From a virus, in IMG/VR virus record IMGVR_UViG_3300031669_000014, positions 16,565 to 80,564 of that record: a stretch of DNA of 64,000 bases; one strand, written 5' to 3'. This document shows, one piece after another, positions 2,745 to 28,920 of the stretch. The first letter of the stretch is position 1; the number at the start of each line of letters is the position of its first letter. Position numbers and translations under genes: made by a program. Under the pieces are notes generated by a model. That model ran no database searches. It was not told where the DNA came from and saw only the letters and a program-made list of their open reading frames with translations.

Positions 2745-4597
2745 GCGTTACCTCCCATTGCCTGCTGCATTTGCTGCATTATTTGGGCCTGCTGATCGGG
2801 AGGTAGTTGCACTAACTCCTGCCGCTGCTCCGGTGACAGTTGGCTTAATAGTTGCTGCGGGTCTACTCGCCCCGGTGCTTGCCCTGGCATTTGTTGCTCC
2901 GGTGTTGTAAGCATAGTCTGAAAATCCTCCGGATTAAGTTGAATCCCCGCCATTGCAGCCGCCTGGATCTGCCCACTGACAGGCAAGTCTCGCATACTGA
3001 TTGACACATTCGGCAAGTCAGTCGGCACCGGAGGAGTATTGGCTTTCTGCTGTTCGATCTGCTTTATTTCATCAATCAACTCTTGTTTTTGCGGTATAAC
3101 ACCGTTTGGAATCCTCTCCAGGTACTGTAAGAAGTTTATTTTCTCAGCTTGCAGCAGGTTATCAAGGGTCTGCATGGCAGTAATTTCGCTCCAATAAGAG
3201 GAAGGGCCCACATCAACCTTGAGCTTTAAGCGCATATCTTTAAGCCGGTTAAAGTCAAACGGCACTACCTGGCGTTGCCCGTTGGTGCTAATCGAGATAT
3301 TTCTTTTCCCGTATTTCGTTGCCATCATATCAAGCCAAATATACCCGATATCCTCAACGAACTGGTATAGATTGGCCTTGATTGTCTCCAGGGGGACAGC
3401 CGCCGCCTGCTGGACTGCGATAATAGCCGCGTGGTTATCCGGCTTCACGTCGCCCAGGGCAGCGTCTGACGCTCCTAGCATGTCCTTGGTATAGTTAATA
3501 CTCGCGTCAATGACTTGCATTACCTGATTTGACATATTCCCAGGCTGCAAGAATGCCGCCACTTTGTTAACGTCTTGCCCACCAGTAACAGGAATAGCCT
3601 GCCCGATCTGATTATTCCACTCCTTGATAAGACTGGAATCGTATACTGCCTTGGGGAATGCGTTGTACATAAGGTTAAGCATGACCATGGCAAACATCTT
3701 GTTAATGAAAATCTGATTCGGAACCAGGCCGGTTCCTACCGCCTGCCCGTGATAACTGTTCTTACGCTTATCCCAATTCATCCAGGCAATGGGATAAAGT
3801 TTCTGGCCGGTATCGACGTTCTCCCGGATTGTTACCGCCCGGGTGGATTTGTTCCACCAAATCGTTTTCGTTTTCGGATCGCGCCAAAACTTAATGATCG
3901 CCGTAGTCTTGCCGGTATTCTCACCGGAGGTGTCAAGCTCAATCTTGGCCATGTCACCGGATTGCTCCTGAGTGTCGGTATCACCACTGATCATGTTGAC
4001 CTTATATTCCTCAACGCCGTTTTTACGGGCCTCATCCCGAAGGCTAGAAACCAATTCCCTAAAAGAGATGATATTATAAGGCTGCTTCTGTACCCGGTAA
4101 TCATTAGGATTGCCAAAAAAGACATTGACATTATCCGGCAGTTCAATCTCGTTGTCACCTTGAGCCTCCTGGCCGGTGTCAATCTCGGGATTCCACCAGC
4201 AGTAAGCGCAAGCATCACCGGAAAGAGCAGCATCCAATAGCACCTGCCGGAGGTTATTGTCCATCTTCAAATTTTCCCAAAGGGTTTCGCTGTATTTAGA
4301 GATGATTTCCGCAGCCTGCTTGACCTCCAGTTCCTGCGGGTCCTGCGTATCGTCGCCGATATTCTCCGGCGTAAACTGCATCTTTACCGCGCTGGACATG
4401 ATAGCGGCAATGAAGTAGTTAATAATGCGCTTGAAGATATTAAATACCGGAGTTGGGAGGCCGTTGGATACTACCCCTTTCCACTGATCGCCTGCATACA
4501 TGCGCTCGTTGCGGTCAACGGTGGCGCCCAGGTCAATCTTGCGGTTGTAATCCTTGCCTTTTTCGTATAGATCCCATTCGCGCGTTGTGTCGCTCAT
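2741..4597 (-). CDS. Portal protein (P22-like)
   Basis: 618 aa after terL; YAGDQW...PVFNIFKRIIN N-terminus; Gln-rich tail. Confidence 0.85.
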   Translation of the reverse strand: MSDTTREWDLYEKGKDYNRKIDLGATVDRNERMYAGDQWKGVVSNGLPTPVFNIFKRIINYFIAAIMSSAVKMQFTPENIGDDTQDPQELEVKQAAEIISKYSETLWENLKMDNNLRQVLLDAALSGDACAYCWWNPEIDTGQEAQGDNEIELPDNVNVFFGNPNDYRVQKQPYNIISFRELVSSLRDEARKNGVEEYKVNMISGDTDTQEQSGDMAKIELDTSGENTGKTTAIIKFWRDPKTKTIWWNKSTRAVTIRENVDTGQKLYPIAWMNWDKRKNSYHGQAVGTGLVPNQIFINKMFAMVMLNLMYNAFPKAVYDSSLIKEWNNQIGQAIPVTGGQDVNKVAAFLQPGNMSNQVMQVIDASINYTKDMLGASDAALGDVKPDNHAAIIAVQQAAAVPLETIKANLYQFVEDIGYIWLDMMATKYGKRNISISTNGQRQVVPFDFNRLKDMRLKLKVDVGPSSYWSEITAMQTLDNLLQAEKINFLQYLERIPNGVIPQKQELIDEIKQIEQQKANTPPVPTDLPNVSISMRDLPVSGQIQAAAMAGIQLNPEDFQTMLTTPEQQMPGQAPGRVDPQQLLSQLSPEQRQELVQLPPDQQAQIMQQMQQAMGGNA

Positions 4598-4848
4598 TCT
4601 TTCACCACCTCTTGAGGCGTTCCATCATAGGCGAGGAGATTAGCCAACCCGTCACGGAACTTGTCCTGCTCCTGCTTTGTCTGCTTAGCCTCCCGGTGCT
4701 CCTGCATGGCCTTAATAGGCCCCTTAATCGGAACTGGTGTCTTACCCTGTCCAACGGCTAGGCCGTCCTGTAGGCCGCGCCTATAGGCCATTAAGGGGCA
4801 TAGGAAAAGGCACAGCCCAAAGGCGATGCCCATGATAGTGTATTCCAT
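4594..4848 (-). CDS. Small membrane protein
   Basis: AGGAGG RBS before ATG 4848; N-terminal hydrophobic helix. Confidence 0.65.
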   Translation of the reverse strand: MEYTIMGIAFGLCLFLCPLMAYRRGLQDGLAVGQGKTPVPIKGPIKAMQEHREAKQTKQEQDKFRDGLANLLAYDGTPQEVVKE

Positions 4849-4858
4849 TGTCAACCTC

Positions 4859-6193
4859 CTAGTAGTTGATATAGCTATTATCAGGTTTCGCCCCGGTGTA
4901 GGGGTCAGGCTTTGGCTTCTCGTGCTTCCAATTATAACGCTGCGGCTTCGCTTTCTCTTCATCTCTGAACTGCAAGCACTCATAATTCATGGCATATCGC
5001 GCCGCATCAATCGTATGGTTATTCTTGTCTGGATAGTTGGCCTTGAAGTTACCATTTACATCCTTCTCCAACTCGTAGTTCATAAACTCCCTGGCTGTCT
5101 CCGGGCACCGCTTGTCGTCGATAATGATAGCTTCCAGGTCTTGCAGGAACTTGATGCCATACTCTACGCTATCCGGTCCCTTCTTGACCGGCGCCACCCT
5201 GAGCCCATACTGGCATAGCTCATTGATACTCTTCGGTTCCGCTGAGTCTGCCAGGATTGGCTCGTTGGAGGTATTCTCCTGTTCAATATGAGTATATGCT
5301 GAGTGGTTTGAAAGCCCAACCTTGTAGTATTCATGGTAGATAAATAGCCGCTTTAACTTACGGTTATAGCTGCAAACGAGATAAGCAAATGGGTCAATCG
5401 CATACCCGAAGTCCATTCCGCGGCGTATGGTCTCAAACTCTGCTATCTCCTCATCGCTGATTGGCCGGATCTGAACATTGCCAAATACCTCACCTCCGGT
5501 ACCGGTAACCTCTCCAAGGTACTCATGGTTATAAGACGTTTCTTTTGTAGCCTTGAGGTGTTCAGCCTCGGCGATAAACTGCTCACCCAGCCAGGCCGGC
5601 GGGACCGTCAAATAGCTGCTGTGATGCACAAGCCTATCTTCCCGGGTGAGCTGAACCTCCGTATTAACCCAGTTGGCGGCAGACTTTGGCGGGTTGTAGG
5701 TGTAGAACACCACAAATTTAGAACCGCCACGAAGTAGTGTCTGGTTAATCATCCGTATTTCTTCGGTTCCGTTAAACTCATCAACTTCCTCGTACCAGAA
5801 GAACTTGCAATAGCCGCGCCTAAAGGTGAAAGACTTGATTTTCTTCGGATTATCTGCACCCCGGAATAGGATTTTCTGGCCGGTTGGAATATATGTCAGG
5901 CTTAACGGGCTAGTATTCTGATGCCAATACCGTTCCACCCCTAGCGCATCTATTGCCCAGCATAGTTGTACGTATACGCTATCCTTGAGCGTATCCTTGA
6001 CCTTCCGCAGGGCGCAGGCGTTGGCGTTAGGGTCCTTCATTATGCCCAGAATTATTTCTATAGCTGCAAAGGTTGACTTGGTGCTGCCCCGGCCACCTTT
6101 GGCCCAATAATGAGTATGCCCACCTCGTTTGATGTCGGCATGAACCGGGTGGAATGACGGAGCTACTAGGTTTGAGATGCGAATTTCAGCCAT
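4859..6193 (-). CDS. terL: Terminase large subunit, PBSX family
   Basis: GGRGSTKS Walker A, WYEEVDE Walker B, TYNPP, GMDFG and NHTIDAARY nuclease motifs. Confidence 0.95.
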   Translation of the reverse strand: MAEIRISNLVAPSFHPVHADIKRGGHTHYWAKGGRGSTKSTFAAIEIILGIMKDPNANACALRKVKDTLKDSVYVQLCWAIDALGVERYWHQNTSPLSLTYIPTGQKILFRGADNPKKIKSFTFRRGYCKFFWYEEVDEFNGTEEIRMINQTLLRGGSKFVVFYTYNPPKSAANWVNTEVQLTREDRLVHHSSYLTVPPAWLGEQFIAEAEHLKATKETSYNHEYLGEVTGTGGEVFGNVQIRPISDEEIAEFETIRRGMDFGYAIDPFAYLVCSYNRKLKRLFIYHEYYKVGLSNHSAYTHIEQENTSNEPILADSAEPKSINELCQYGLRVAPVKKGPDSVEYGIKFLQDLEAIIIDDKRCPETAREFMNYELEKDVNGNFKANYPDKNNHTIDAARYAMNYECLQFRDEEKAKPQRYNWKHEKPKPDPYTGAKPDNSYINY

Positions 6194-16026: not shown

Positions 16027-16464
16027 CTAAAAGTTAACATCAATCTTTTCCCCTTGCAGGATCCGCCGGTCTGTCTGCGTCGCCCAGCTCGGGGCCATCG
16101 GCCAGCCGTTTAATCTGTCGCCTGCCTTACACGGGCACCGGCAGTAGCGATCTTCCCCTTCCTGTAAAACTGTGATATAACCCCCGCCGCCACAAACGGA
16201 GCAACCCGTTTTTTTTAGTGGCTGAAAGGCTGTATTGCGCTGATCGTCCTTAATACTTTGTATTGCGCCCTGGATATCTGCAACCGTGGGGAAGAATTTT
16301 GCCGTGGCCAGCACCTTTTTAAGCGCTTCTTTAACCTGCGGATAAGGTAATTCCCCTAACATTTCTTCCCAAGTCATCCCAATTTGTACAAGTTCTTTAT
16401 TCTGGATACTTGGGAAACTTCCATAAGCTAGAGTTATTAAACTTTTAATCTCCTGTTTATTCAC
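16027..16464 (-). CDS. Helicase loader/inhibitor-like protein (G39P-like) with Zn finger
   Basis: W.EML.ELPY..V..AL..V....KFFPTVADI; directly after the initiator. Confidence 0.7.
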   Translation of the reverse strand: MNKQEIKSLITLAYGSFPSIQNKELVQIGMTWEEMLGELPYPQVKEALKKVLATAKFFPTVADIQGAIQSIKDDQRNTAFQPLKKTGCSVCGGGGYITVLQEGEDRYCRCPCKAGDRLNGWPMAPSWATQTDRRILQGEKIDVNF

Positions 16465-17227
16465 TGTTCGCCCACTCCTCTAAAGCCTGTCTTCCGGTTG
16501 ACCAACCTTCCTGGCTTTGTCCGCCCTCATGGTATTCATCCTCCCAACCTTTAGCATTTAGCCAGGTTGCCGGATGGGGAATCCATTTCCCATTTTCCTT
16601 TGTCCACCCCGCCGAAGTCTTGGCCCGCTTTAACGCATCAAGAATGACTGCTAGAAGCTGTTCGTCCGGTTTGATTTTATTCCATGCTTTTTCAGCCTGG
16701 CCCTTAGACTTTTTATTTGGATATGATTGCCAAAATTCGTCAAACATTTCTTGATGATTTATTTTTTCTTGCGCAAGTATTTTAAGATCTTTATTCTTTA
16801 CATTCTTTACATTCTTTACATTCTTGTTTGTGTTCATTTGTTGTTCATTTGCTGTTCGTTTGTTGTTCATTTGTTGTTCATTTTGTTGTTCAGGTTGGTC
16901 CCCTTCCCCCTGATAAAAAGCCCAATTCTCAATGGTTACAATAGAAAATTTGTTGTTCGGCTGGATGACCAATCTTTCACTCGATTCTAATTTTTTTACG
17001 TAACGATACAGTGACGAGGGATGTAGCTTTAATTCTGCCGCAGCCTTGTCTCTGCCGAAGACAAATTGCCCTGGTTTTAGGATAACTTTTTGAAGTCCAA
17101 CAAGTTGCTCATGCTCTTTATGACTGGCTTTAAGTAAACACCACACCCAAACTTTAAGGAGGTTCTCATTGTCAAATAACGGGTTGTCTAATAAACACCG
17201 GTGAAGCTTGATGTAGCCGCTTGCCAT
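16457..17227 (-). CDS. Phage replication initiator (replisome organizer)
   Basis: GYIKLHR N-terminus, internal repeats, FDEFW..YP.K and PHPATWLN C-terminal domain. Confidence 0.88.
   Translation of the reverse strand: MASGYIKLHRCLLDNPLFDNENLLKVWVWCLLKASHKEHEQLVGLQKVILKPGQFVFGRDKAAAELKLHPSSLYRYVKKLESSERLVIQPNNKFSIVTIENWAFYQGEGDQPEQQNEQQMNNKRTANEQQMNTNKNVKNVKNVKNKDLKILAQEKINHQEMFDEFWQSYPNKKSKGQAEKAWNKIKPDEQLLAVILDALKRAKTSAGWTKENGKWIPHPATWLNAKGWEDEYHEGGQSQEGWSTGRQALEEWANSE
16791..16892. repeat. Iteron-like repeats, putative lytic origin (phage A)
   Basis: Tandem ATTCTTTAC and repeated TTGTTGTTCAT units inside the initiator gene. Confidence 0.7.
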
Positions 17228-24308: not shown

Positions 24309-24710
24309 TTGGTAAATGTGGGGATTGGTAAAAGATTGAGAGAATTAAGGGAGCGGGAAGGGCTTACTCAGGAAGAGTTGGGTAAAATAATCAATCAAAA
24401 AAAGTCCAATATCTCCAAATATGAAAATGGCAAATTACAGCCAAGTCTTGAAACAATAGAATCTCTTTTAGGATTCTTTGGAGTTTCGCCTAATTATTTT
24501 TTTAATTATACTCCCCATGCCGAACACAACGAAAAAAATAAAACGGCCTATTTCAAACCAACTAACCAGATCCCAGAAGAGAAACGGAAACTCATAGAAA
24601 AACTTCTGGAATTCAATGATAATGATTACAAAAAAATTGAGGCTATTGCCGAAGTTTTCATTCAGATAGACAGATCAAAGAACGAGCAGGCAGCCGCAAT
24701 GGGAAGCTAA
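24309..24710 (+). CDS. CI-like XRE repressor
   Basis: RLRELRE..GLTQEELG...NISKYENG HTH. Confidence 0.9.
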   Translation: MVNVGIGKRLRELREREGLTQEELGKIINQKKSNISKYENGKLQPSLETIESLLGFFGVSPNYFFNYTPHAEHNEKNKTAYFKPTNQIPEEKRKLIEKLLEFNDNDYKKIEAIAEVFIQIDRSKNEQAAAMGS

Positions 24711-24826: not shown

Positions 24827-24958
24827 GTGTTTATGTGTAATAATTATGACTTACTTATAATTTGCTATAAAAGCGGTCAGATACCGGAGGATGAATGGCA
24901 GGAAATTTTAAAAGACGAGGTATTTTATTGTTATTATCAAAAACAAATAAGGTTATAA
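24827..24958 (+). CDS. Small hypothetical protein (43 aa, not in the ORF track)
   Basis: AGGAGA RBS and GTG start; followed by a terminator. Confidence 0.5.
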   Translation: MFMCNNYDLLIICYKSGQIPEDEWQEILKDEVFYCYYQKQIRL

Positions 24959-24964
24959 AATAAA

Positions 24965-24995
24965 AATAACCCCCTCGTGTGAGGGGGTTTTATTC
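24965..24995. terminator. Bidirectional intrinsic terminator
   Basis: AACCCCCTC-GTGT-GAGGGGGTT flanked by A and T tracts. Confidence 0.8.
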
Positions 24996-25010
24996 TGCGT
25001 CGTAATTTAG

Positions 25011-25039
25011 TTGACTAGCCATATGTTGGGGCGTATAAT
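25011..25039 (+). promoter_or_regulatory. sigmaA promoter (sense RNA)
   Basis: TTGACT-17 nt-TATAAT. Confidence 0.85.
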
Positions 25040-25057
25040 GGAAGGGACAACCATATA

Positions 25058-25137
25058 ATGAAAGTAACCCCCCGGTTAGACCTCCGAAGGGTTACAGGCG
25101 GGACAACCTCACAACAGGCCGGCCCGACGGTTACTGT
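25058..25137 (-). ncRNA. ~80-nt antisense countertranscript
   Basis: Own promoter; two hairpins whose G-U pairs form only on this strand; the second is followed by UUUCAUU. Confidence 0.75.
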
Positions 25138-25143
25138 ACTAAG

Positions 25144-25172
25144 ATTGTAACTTACATTTTTAGTATAGTCAA
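25144..25172 (-). promoter_or_regulatory. sigmaA promoter (antisense RNA)
   Basis: TTGACT-17 nt-TACAAT on the minus strand. Confidence 0.8.
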
Positions 25173-25184
25173 GACAGAATTCCC

Positions 25185-25219
25185 GGCTTTTTGTGAGGTT
25201 CCTCGCAAGAAGCCTTTTT
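25185..25219 (+). terminator. Attenuator (conditional terminator)
   Basis: 13-bp stem plus TTTTT; its 5' arm can instead pair with 25105-25122 (17 of 18 positions). Confidence 0.75.
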
Positions 25220-25610
25220 GATTATCCGAAAAGGTTTCGGGTAAATAGGCTGATAACCAAGCATGCCCGGGTAGTGACCGGGATTATAACCGTTAGATGG
25301 GGATGTTTTTCCTTCCCAGAATTGAAACCGTGCCACGATGCTAACGAACCTATGATGCACCCTGGAAACCGTGGTGTAGAGGCTACGAGCAGATGAGAGA
25401 TGTCACCGATGCTAACCAAGCAGGCTGTAAGATATGGTGGACCTGGGGGCCGTCAAAAGACTAGGTGATGCGGCGTAATAGCCGCCTGTTGAAGGGACGA
25501 CCGACCGAGACTAGGCCAAGTTCCAAGACAGTGTTTTCCCGCCAGCGCGGGATCTCTGTCTCTAAAACTCCCTCCCTCAACCGGCCCCCATCCTAAAATA
25601 ATCACTCCGG
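25220..25610 (+). ncRNA. Long structured non-coding RNA segment (candidate replication primer)
   Basis: Several hairpins and long-range TGGGGGCCG/CGGCCCCCA pairing; no credible ORF. Confidence 0.5.
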
Positions 25611-25619
25611 AGGAATTAC

Positions 25620-26057
25620 ATGCACTACCTAAACACGAAAGAAGCAGCAGCAATCCTAAACTGTGGGACCAAGAATGTTACCCTGATGTGTGCTGCCGGG
25701 AAGTTTCCAGGGTCCAAAAAGGTGATGGGGAAGAAAACGGACGAGTGGCGCATACCGGCCCAGGAAGTAATTGACTACCAGGCTAACAAGGAAGTTGAGG
25801 CCGAAGTTTTGCCGCCTGAAAGCCATGAACTGGTCACGGTTAAGTCTCTGGCTGATTTTTTTATGGATGAACGGAGAAGGAACGATGCTGAACATGATGA
25901 AACAAGGAGAATACTTGAAGAAGAAGTAAAAAGGAGGAATGAAGAAATAATGGAGTTACGCGGGATACTGGCGAAACAGGGGGAAGAAGTCGCGGTAGTT
26001 TGGGGGAAGGTTGCGGAGATTGAAAAGAAAAAGCGCCCGTGGTGGCGCTGGTGGTAG
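25620..26057 (+). CDS. HTH, coiled-coil and aromatic-tail protein (pSK1 Par-like architecture)
   Basis: YLNTKEAAAIL excisionase-type HTH, EEVKRRNEEIMELR coiled coil, KKRPWWRWW tail; GGAGG RBS. Confidence 0.7.
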   Translation: MHYLNTKEAAAILNCGTKNVTLMCAAGKFPGSKKVMGKKTDEWRIPAQEVIDYQANKEVEAEVLPPESHELVTVKSLADFFMDERRRNDAEHDETRRILEEEVKRRNEEIMELRGILAKQGEEVAVVWGKVAEIEKKKRPWWRWW

Positions 26058-28227: not shown

Positions 28228-28920
28228 TCAGCCTTTCATCTTGTCGTACTCGTACAGCACCCGGATAAGCGCATAAAAATCCTCGCTTCGATTCTCCGGA
28301 GAAACAACAAGACTATGCGCCACAGCCCACATTAGCGCCTCTTTGGCCCAATCAGGAACCACAGTAGCCACCTCACCTTTCCACGCGCATCCCAGTGCCC
28401 GGGCGATACCCTTGGCGTAGGCGCCGGCCAGACCATCAAGAAAAACTTCGTTTTTTAACTTCGCAGCGTCGAATTGGTTAGAAATGAATAGGTTCTCAAA
28501 CAACATCGCTGGCATTAACGTATCCCGGAGAACAGCAAAATTAGCCGTCTTTTTGCCACGGTCCACGAAGCCATACTGCCGGTAAAAGTTAGCTACTTCA
28601 GTGTGTACGTAGAAGCGAAGATTATCGGCTTTCTGGCTACCTGGGTAAGTGAAACTCTCAAAACCGGTGGCGGACGCGTTTACTGCGCTATTGACGTGGA
28701 TGCTCAAAAAGAAATCAGCCTCCGGGTAAACGTTGGCCGCGATGCAAATATCAGCCAGTTTGTTTTCATGCACCGTCACGTTATCAATCCCATATAGCGG
28801 CAATTTAGCGGCAATCTTGCTGCATATGTTTACGTCAATGTCGGCCTCGTGGATACCGTTTCCGACGGCGCCAGGATCAAGATTGTCAAAGTGCCCAGGA
28901 TTTTGAATTACAAGTGCCAT
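28228..28920 (-). CDS. N-acetylmuramoyl-L-alanine amidase (Amidase_3 endolysin)
   Basis: PGH..DPGA, E, FLSIHVNS, NFAVLR and ENLFISN; SLH-like PDWAKEAL tail. Confidence 0.93.
   Translation of the reverse strand: MALVIQNPGHFDNLDPGAVGNGIHEADIDVNICSKIAAKLPLYGIDNVTVHENKLADICIAANVYPEADFFLSIHVNSAVNASATGFESFTYPGSQKADNLRFYVHTEVANFYRQYGFVDRGKKTANFAVLRDTLMPAMLFENLFISNQFDAAKLKNEVFLDGLAGAYAKGIARALGCAWKGEVATVVPDWAKEALMWAVAHSLVVSPENRSEDFYALIRVLYEYDKMKG

Follow-up and report, generated by a model that had tools for sequence, protein, structure and literature searches.

A candidate countertranscript-driven attenuator in a plasmid-like module of an integrase-less, temperate-type phage

Introduction

Could a phage carry the kind of RNA switch by which plasmids sense their own copy number, and what would such a switch control when no replication gene lies behind it? 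Antisense-driven attenuation is textbook copy-number control in small Gram-positive plasmids. The question is raised by a 64,000-nucleotide stretch of viral DNA (the window; positions 16565 to 80564 of the 80,564-bp IMG/VR record IMGVR_UViG_3300031669_000014), in which a sequence-only reading described a complete antisense-RNA attenuation switch at window positions 25011 to 25219.

Results

The whole record was found to consist of two related, collinear phage genomes of ~40 kb arranged head to tail, with a self-match offset of ~42.6 kb, and its CheckV rating of 100% complete therefore describes a concatenate. Record positions 1 to 1657 were 100% identical to contig L003, which extends leftwards with a different, Rep-type leader, and the record ends at the point where the shared immunity region would start. 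Within the window, the joint lies at 24968 to 24998. On the simplest reading, the record is probably an assembler walk through two co-occurring phages that share a repressor/immunity region. The antisense element is assigned to the second phage of the record, and its linkage to the repressor region upstream passes through the shared repeat as part of the assembly walk. Since the order of terminator and then module is identical in all relatives, the local context stands.

The leader is located downstream of an XRE-type repressor gene on the same strand (24309 to 24710, + strand), which is divergent from a Cro-like gene and the early operon on the - strand. The early operon includes a DnaD-like initiator (16457 to 17227, - strand) and a helicase loader (16027 to 16464, - strand), both separate from the leader module. 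Downstream of the leader, the order is 390 nt of noncoding DNA, a gene encoding an HTH_17 protein, and then the terminal part of the - strand late gene region, where the endolysin gene is found (28228 to 28920, - strand). The slot occupied by the module is the usual location of the integrase in temperate phages. A search of the record revealed no tyrosine integrase, serine recombinase, or rve transposase, and the complete relative G002 (47.9 kb, with terminal repeats) was found to have no tyrosine integrase and no serine recombinase. Given the lack of an integrase in both the record and the complete relative, the module has the appearance of a plasmid-type replicon for maintenance that is controlled by a countertranscript.

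A variable cargo slot was also observed between the repressor gene and the conserved terminator that follows it (window 24827 to 24958; L007 4628 to 5296; L005 4021 to 4645). In the window, it contained a 43-amino-acid (aa) open reading frame (ORF); the related locus L007 encodes a secreted protein with a Cu_amine_oxidN1 domain there, and the related locus L005 encodes two small proteins that are membrane bound or secreted.

The conserved terminator is a bidirectional intrinsic terminator (24968 to 24989), which has a 9-bp stem on either strand and closes the repressor operon. It forms the conserved joint upstream of the module, is kept in L005, L006, and L007, and could also act as a second terminator of the antisense RNA. 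In the leader itself, the promoter scan recovered the convergent pair that had been read from the letters, TTGACT-17-TATAAT on the + strand and TTGACT-17-TACAAT on the - strand, with scores of 11/12 and 10/12, respectively. The sense promoter, P+ (25011 to 25039, + strand), has an inferred start at ~25046, and the antisense promoter, P- (25172 to 25144, - strand), is situated inside a sense hairpin at 25129 to 25170. The putative attenuator is an intrinsic terminator (25185 to 25219, + strand) in which a 13-bp stem (25185 to 25214) with the loop GUUC is followed by TTTTT, so the 13-bp terminator with a U5 tract described earlier is indeed present. Its hairpin alone was calculated at -18.9 kcal/mol, and the attenuated RNA is predicted to be ~174 nt long. 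Apart from P+, the scan found no + strand promoter scoring at least 9/12 ahead of the HTH_17 gene, and expression of this gene therefore depends on read-through.

The antisense RNA predicted from the promoter and hairpin positions would be ~82 nt long (25056 to 25137, - strand). Its 3' stem-loop and terminator, hairpin A (25064 to 25095, - strand), has 12 pairs and a weak T tail, TTTCATTATA, and its 5' stem-loop, hairpin B (25097 to 25124, - strand), has the loop GUUGUG. Hairpin A was calculated at -18.6 kcal/mol on the antisense strand, where the 12 pairs, two of them U-G, are continuous, versus -13.9 kcal/mol on the sense strand, where they are interrupted by a 2x2 C.A internal loop. The corresponding values for hairpin B were -9.5 and -7.9 kcal/mol. 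The antisense hairpins are more stable than their sense mirrors because the antisense U-G pairs become C.A mismatches in the sense strand, in agreement with the sequence-only reading, which had called for an antisense RNA of ~80 nt whose two stems use strand-specific G-U pairs.

The top inverted repeat of the region joins the 5' arm of a putative antiterminator, or pre-emptor (25105 to 25122, + strand), which is inside the antisense target, to a 3' arm that is also the 5' arm of the terminator (25183 to 25200, + strand). The 18-nt pairing comprises 16 Watson-Crick pairs, one G-U pair, and one mismatch. Between the terminator 5' arm and the 137 nt upstream, the best duplex had an energy of -27.5 kcal/mol, a value reached by none of 3,000 dinucleotide shuffles of those 137 nt (mean, -13.3; standard deviation, 2.2; z, -6.5), and the claim that 17 of the 18 positions pair is upheld. 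When natural 137-nt blocks of the window were used for comparison, leaving out only the + strand blocks near the site, 1 of 931 was equal to or better than the antiterminator duplex (-32.5 kcal/mol); this single block presumably corresponds to the reverse complement of the arm itself, read on the - strand. Near the middle of the antiterminator arm, the sense sequence CACAAC is complementary to the GUUGUG loop of hairpin B, and the two are a plausible candidate for a kissing first contact.

The 177-nt sense leader was calculated to fold at -66.7 kcal/mol compared with -39.6 kcal/mol for shuffles (z, -6.66), and its minimum-energy structure contains the long-range pairing. In the thermodynamic model of the free leader, the pair probabilities were ~1 for the antiterminator and ~0 for the terminator, and forcing the terminator to form cost 5.6 kcal/mol. 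When positions 25058 to 25137 were made unavailable, as a mimic of the antisense duplex, the terminator formed. In this model, then, the antiterminator and terminator pairings are mutually exclusive and the leader behaves as a switch, which supports the earlier proposal that antisense binding would cover 25105 to 25122 and so free the terminator. Every feature listed in the sequence-only reading was recovered, and chance does not account for them.

Two further features of the leader were observed. The sense hairpin at 25129 to 25170 is formed by a 12-bp inverted repeat, ACTGTACTAAGA/TTTTTAGTATAGT, that encloses the -10 box and spacer of P- and whose 3' arm runs into the -35 box of that promoter; the repeat could just as well serve as an operator at which a dimeric DNA-binding protein controls P-. 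In addition, two copies of the word GGGACAA(CC) were seen within 57 nt, one at the start of the leader (25044 to 25050) and the other beside the antiterminator arm (25100 to 25106), with a third near-copy, GGGACGACC, at 25493 to 25501 inside the 390-nt region. The four iterons of L005, which have a 23-nt spacing, repeat the same core, GGGACAA, and the copies in the window could be sites for an L005-type initiator acting in trans or could have arisen by chance.

No close relatives of the window leader were found by blastn against phages and plasmids or by DNA-pattern searches of IMG/VR and GTDB genomes. Patterns derived from the terminator stem, the upstream terminator, and hairpin A matched only the L005 contig and one contig of a metagenome-assembled genome in the latter two collections, and the second of these is unrelated and shares the terminator alone. 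Rfam, searched at E values up to 1, gave no match in 25000 to 25620, including to ctRNA_pT181, ctRNA_pGA1, ctRNA_pND324, and RNAI. The sole Rfam match between 20000 and 32000 at E values up to 1, a weak one to BTnc231 on the upstream terminator, was set aside as a terminator look-alike.

The related HTH_17 loci have flanks that are 80 to 94% identical to those of the window; from the conserved upstream terminator up to the HTH_17 gene, their sequence is unrelated. The same layout was nevertheless found in the same slot in five metagenomic phage loci (L003, L005, L006, L007, and L009). In these, a + strand promoter (10 to 11/12) directly follows the terminator, a stable hairpin begins 10 to 25 nt past its -10 box, and a convergent - strand promoter (9 to 11/12) with the conserved word AAAAAGTCAAT lies 36 to 56 nt past the hairpin; the predicted antisense RNAs are ~70 to 95 nt long. 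Of these loci, L005 most resembles the window. Homology to hairpin A can be seen in its 5' hairpin, which keeps both C.A/U-G positions and exhibits one compensatory change of C-G to U-A, and after its P- this locus has an 11-bp leader terminator just ahead of the ribosome-binding site (RBS) of the Rep-like gene.

Behind the leader, the relatives encode one or two small HTH_36 winged-helix proteins of 106 to 191 aa. These Rep-like proteins match phage replication-initiation and DnaD-like families, and homologues were found on plasmids and phage-plasmid-sized replicons of Bacillus, Paenibacillus, and Clostridium. The relatives also contain an AT-rich stretch and two to four tandem iteron-like repeats that differ by locus (L007 5836 to 5904; L005 5815 to 5913; L006 1154 to 1212; L009 5825 to 5901; L003 511 to 540). 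With the exception of L009, each relative has a perfect DnaA box, TTATCCACA, which follows the repeats and precedes the HTH_17 start by ~25 to 75 nt (in most cases ~45 nt); this box is present in all of L002 to L007 (L002 316 to 335; L003 619 to 627; L004 180 to 188; L005 5954 to 5962; L006 1275 to 1283; L007 5954 to 5962) and essentially nowhere else in those loci. The module of Rep-like gene, iterons, and DnaA box was thus observed in L002 to L007 and partly in L009. From its sequence, it looks like the anatomy of a theta-type plasmid replicon, located next to the repressor and at a distance from the genes for lytic replication. In L009, a 205-aa tyrosine recombinase was also noted immediately before the module (4564 to 5181; 135.8 bits to Phage_integrase), whose size and position suggest an Xer-like dimer resolvase rather than an integrase.

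The pre-emptor pairing of the window was not found in the relatives, in which pairing with the 5' arm of the terminator or RBS hairpin was not significant (z, -1.6 to +0.3) and the modelled folds exhibited no switching. In L003, L006, and L007, a hairpin with no terminator before it sequesters the start codon and RBS of the Rep-like gene, and the antisense promoter has its -35 box within the 5' arm of this hairpin (GUCAAUGCCUCC/GGAGGUGUUGAC; L007 5501 to 5556; L006 794 to 850; L003 155 to 182), which suggests translational control in place of a terminator. As judged from these predicted features, attenuation is firmly readable only in the window and partly in L005, and antisense control is common to the family; the relatives may use another antisense mechanism.

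In the window, the place of the relatives' Rep-like gene, iterons, and DnaA box is taken by the 390-nt noncoding read-through region (25220 to 25609, + strand), and none of these three elements was found in 25000 to 25620. The region has stop codons in all three + strand frames, and no ORF of at least 100 aa was found in 25220 to 25619, so the remark that no rep gene follows the switch holds for the window up to the HTH_17 gene. The sole + strand ORF there (25193 to 25396, 67 aa) has a GTG start and begins within the terminator. The 390-nt region gave no match in Rfam or, by blastn, in phages or plasmids. It was considered as a decayed Rep gene, and tblastn with five Rep-like proteins and local DNA alignment to L005 gave results no better than shuffles. 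A highly structured RNA was likewise not supported, the fold having z values of -1.08 on the + strand and -2.28 on the - strand. A C-rich, G-poor tract was observed at 25555 to 25600, just before the HTH_17 RBS, with G clusters on the opposite strand; this tract may allow entry of Rho or be prone to R-loop formation.

The HTH_17 gene (25620 to 26057, + strand; Shine-Dalgarno [SD] sequence GGAGG at 25610 to 25614) encodes a 145-aa protein with a MerR/Xis-type winged helix-turn-helix (HTH), a long helix, and a basic aromatic tail. It is the only gene that the attenuator can gate in the window, and the controlled product would comprise no more than the noncoding stretch and this gene. The protein has a handful of relatives with 54 to 89% identity, the closest being P0001 (89%), and the tails after the long helix were observed to be of the KKKRPWWRWW type or the KKPGWIARLLG type. 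Neither tblastn of the protein against phages nor a profile search of genome contigs with the HTH_17 alignment produced a match, and a PDB sequence search with the alignment gave nothing meaningful. The predicted structure (mean pLDDT, 77) has a winged HTH at its N terminus, joined through a linker to a 60-residue helix, and a Foldseek search with this model returned only generic MerR/Xis-type winged-HTH proteins (such as RacA, BldC, and Xis), none with an E value below 0.001. RacA, RocS, and the single-protein partition factor Par of pSK1 combine an HTH, a coiled coil, and a basic or amphipathic tail (PMC11500499). The HTH_17 proteins have the same domain order, and this analogy offers a segregation role as a lead.

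Discussion

The reading that we consider probable is that the leader is a countertranscript-driven attenuator in a plasmid-like maintenance module, located in the integrase slot of an integrase-less temperate-type phage. It is directly supported by the parts read in the sequence, by their nonrandom complementarity and the switching of the modelled fold, and by relatives in which this architecture precedes a Rep-like gene and an origin. The lack of an integrase and the separate DnaD-like initiator and helicase loader of the early operon also favor it. Against it stand the weak U tail of the antisense terminator, the nonsignificant pre-emptor pairing and nonswitching folds of the relatives, a controlled product limited to a noncoding stretch and an HTH gene, and a linkage to the repressor region that passes through a shared repeat. 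We infer that both transcripts are made, that the antisense RNA alters termination, and that the module serves in replication or maintenance.

In the proposed mechanism, P+ (25011 to 25039) would start a leader RNA near 25046. In the free leader, 25105 to 25122 would pair with 25183 to 25200 and tie up the 5' arm of the terminator, and RNA polymerase would then read through the 390 nt of noncoding RNA into the HTH_17 gene. P- (25172 to 25144) would produce the ~82-nt antisense RNA with two stem-loops, complementary to the leader at ~25056 to 25137, which would probably first meet the nascent leader loop to loop through GUUGUG and CACAAC. This pairing would sequester 25105 to 25122, allow the terminator at 25185 to 25214 to form, and release the ~174-nt attenuated RNA. 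Because the antisense gene is on the same DNA, the dose of antisense RNA would follow the copy number of the element, giving negative feedback of the pT181/pIP501 kind. We infer that the module most likely maintains the prophage in plasmid form and that the antisense RNA serves as its copy-number sensor.

Antisense attenuation has been described for pT181, pIP501, and pAMbeta1 (PMC2879508). Like the leaders of pT181 (RNAI/RNAII-repC), pIP501 (RNAIII-repR), and pAMbeta1 (ctRNA-repE), the window element has a leader with a strong promoter, a convergent promoter, and a predicted two-hairpin antisense RNA, together with an intrinsic terminator past the target and a pre-emptor pairing that, in our model, is removed by antisense binding. 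In the relatives, as in the plasmids, the terminator or leader lies directly ahead of a Rep-like gene and origin, and the presence of these in the same place makes the analogy stronger. Two countertranscripts are made in pT181, and the two possible 3' ends of the window's antisense RNA, at 25056 or at the terminator at 24968, recall that pair. However, the window RNA has no homology to the pT181/inc18 RNAs in sequence or at the level of Rfam, and the element resides on a phage of ~40 kb rather than on a small plasmid. In the window it is followed not by a rep gene but by 390 nt of noncoding sequence and the HTH_17 gene, and the Rep-like proteins of the relatives are short HTH_36 winged-helix proteins and not of the RepC or RepR types. 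Nor was a CopR-like second regulator identified for the window. The phrase "as in pT181 and pIP501" in the sequence-only reading is therefore apt for the parts, their order, and the modelled switch but not for the controlled gene, which is not rep, or for RNA family, as Rfam gave no match. According to the model, the element works like the pT181/inc18 attenuators, and it is not a member of the group because RNA homology is lacking and no rep gene follows.

A precedent for control of another kind of gene is provided by RnaG/icsA of Shigella flexneri, in which a cis-antisense RNA, transcribed from a convergent promoter, causes an intrinsic terminator to form in the nascent leader of a gene other than rep, with transcriptional interference operating as well (PMC2879508). 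The window shares with it a predicted cis-antisense RNA, the convergent promoter, the intrinsic terminator, and a gene other than rep. It differs in that RnaG belongs to a Gram-negative virulence plasmid, is ~450 nt long with three hairpins, and has no homology to the window RNA.

The alternative that survives best, although we regard it as unlikely, is a convergent pair of sense and antisense small RNAs without attenuation, in which transcription would normally yield the 174-nt sense RNA ending at the terminator, with the antisense RNA acting through transcriptional interference or RNase III-type decay of the duplex and the long-range helix only stabilizing the transcript. It is favored by the relatives, which have convergent promoters without a modelled switch, and of which L003, L006, and L007 have an RBS hairpin and no terminator, pointing to translational or stability control; transcriptional interference, moreover, accompanies antisense attenuation in RnaG/icsA (PMC2879508). 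However, the 18-nt helix takes exactly the 5' arm of the terminator and excludes the terminator, which would be needless for mere stabilization, and the HTH_17 gene has no other + strand promoter, so read-through must occur if it is to be expressed.

Quite improbable, in our estimate, is that the leader is a relic, an intact control region whose Rep gene and origin were lost or replaced and which regulates nothing useful, in a phage that is lytic or uses the functions of a co-resident relative. The promoters, both hairpins, the terminator, and the 17-of-18 pairing are all intact, as is the HTH_17 gene, which has a good SD sequence and an 89%-identical relative elsewhere, and the 390 nt contain no trace of a decayed Rep gene. 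These observations weigh more with us than the two that a relic would explain, namely, that the Rep-like gene, iterons, and DnaA box of the relatives are absent here and that a co-occurring sister phage with the full module shares the immunity region.

Prophages are also known to carry type I toxin-antitoxin systems, such as bsrG/SR4 and txpA/RatA, in which the mRNA for a small toxic peptide is overlapped by an antisense antitoxin. The convergent promoters, the predicted small overlapping transcripts, the prophage-like genome, and a 30-codon ORF at 25058 to 25150 would fit such a system, which we nonetheless reject as very improbable: the product of this sole ORF is polar and without a hydrophobic helix, its only SD-like purine run is at or upstream of the inferred transcript start, and the relatives have a Rep-like gene rather than a peptide behind the same architecture. 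A chance set of consensus-like motifs, or an assembly artifact at the chimeric joint, is scarcely credible, for although the record concatenates two phages and the element begins right after the shared terminator, the shuffle statistics of the leader fold and antiterminator duplex and the recurrence of the architecture in five independent contigs, with the same terminator-then-module order, speak against it.

If the leader is a countertranscript-driven attenuator of a maintenance module, the nature of the replicon in the window has to be considered separately from that in its relatives. In extrachromosomal prophages of mycobacteriophages (cluster A parABS phages), which are closely related temperate phages, the integration cassette is replaced by either a Rep-protein replicon or a noncoding transcribed region, and the latter is necessary and sufficient for plasmid replication (PMC7157519). 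The phages described here offer a likeness in that one slot holds a Rep-like gene, iterons, and DnaA box in the relatives and a noncoding region in the window. They differ in that the mycobacteriophages have actinobacterial hosts and parABS, which was not seen beside the window module, and in that no antisense attenuator has been described there; replication by the window's 390 nt is only a candidate function. A likeness in layout alone can also be drawn with RNA I/RNA II of ColE1, since the predicted antisense RNA is complementary to the 5' end of a ~570-nt noncoding sense transcript with no Rep protein, and the 390 nt fold no better than shuffles on the + strand (z, -1.08). In ColE1, however, control acts on how the primer folds and forms an R-loop, and no intrinsic terminator is involved. 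The window sense RNA also differs in being C-rich rather than G-rich at its 3' end and in giving no Rfam match to RNAI. As a tentative and doubtful extension, the window variant could be a Rep-less phage-plasmid replicon gated by the antisense RNA, in which the 390-nt read-through RNA would be the rate-limiting primer or origin activator or the origin would be served in trans by the initiator of a co-resident relative. Were this true, the variant would place ColE1-like logic together with pT181-like attenuation inside a phage and would parallel the division between RepA and non-RepA prophage origins in mycobacteriophages.

A conserved, exchangeable cassette in uncultivated phages of ~40 kb, comprising the leader, Rep-like gene, iterons, DnaA box, and HTH/coiled-coil gene, would extend antisense attenuation to phage-plasmids and would serve as a sequence-readable marker of extrachromosomal lysogeny. 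The switch is compact (~175 nt) and fully specified, and it is thus directly testable and reusable as a regulatory part. With a full switch and no initiator gene, the window variant would be a natural test case for RNA-based prophage replicons outside the Actinobacteria.
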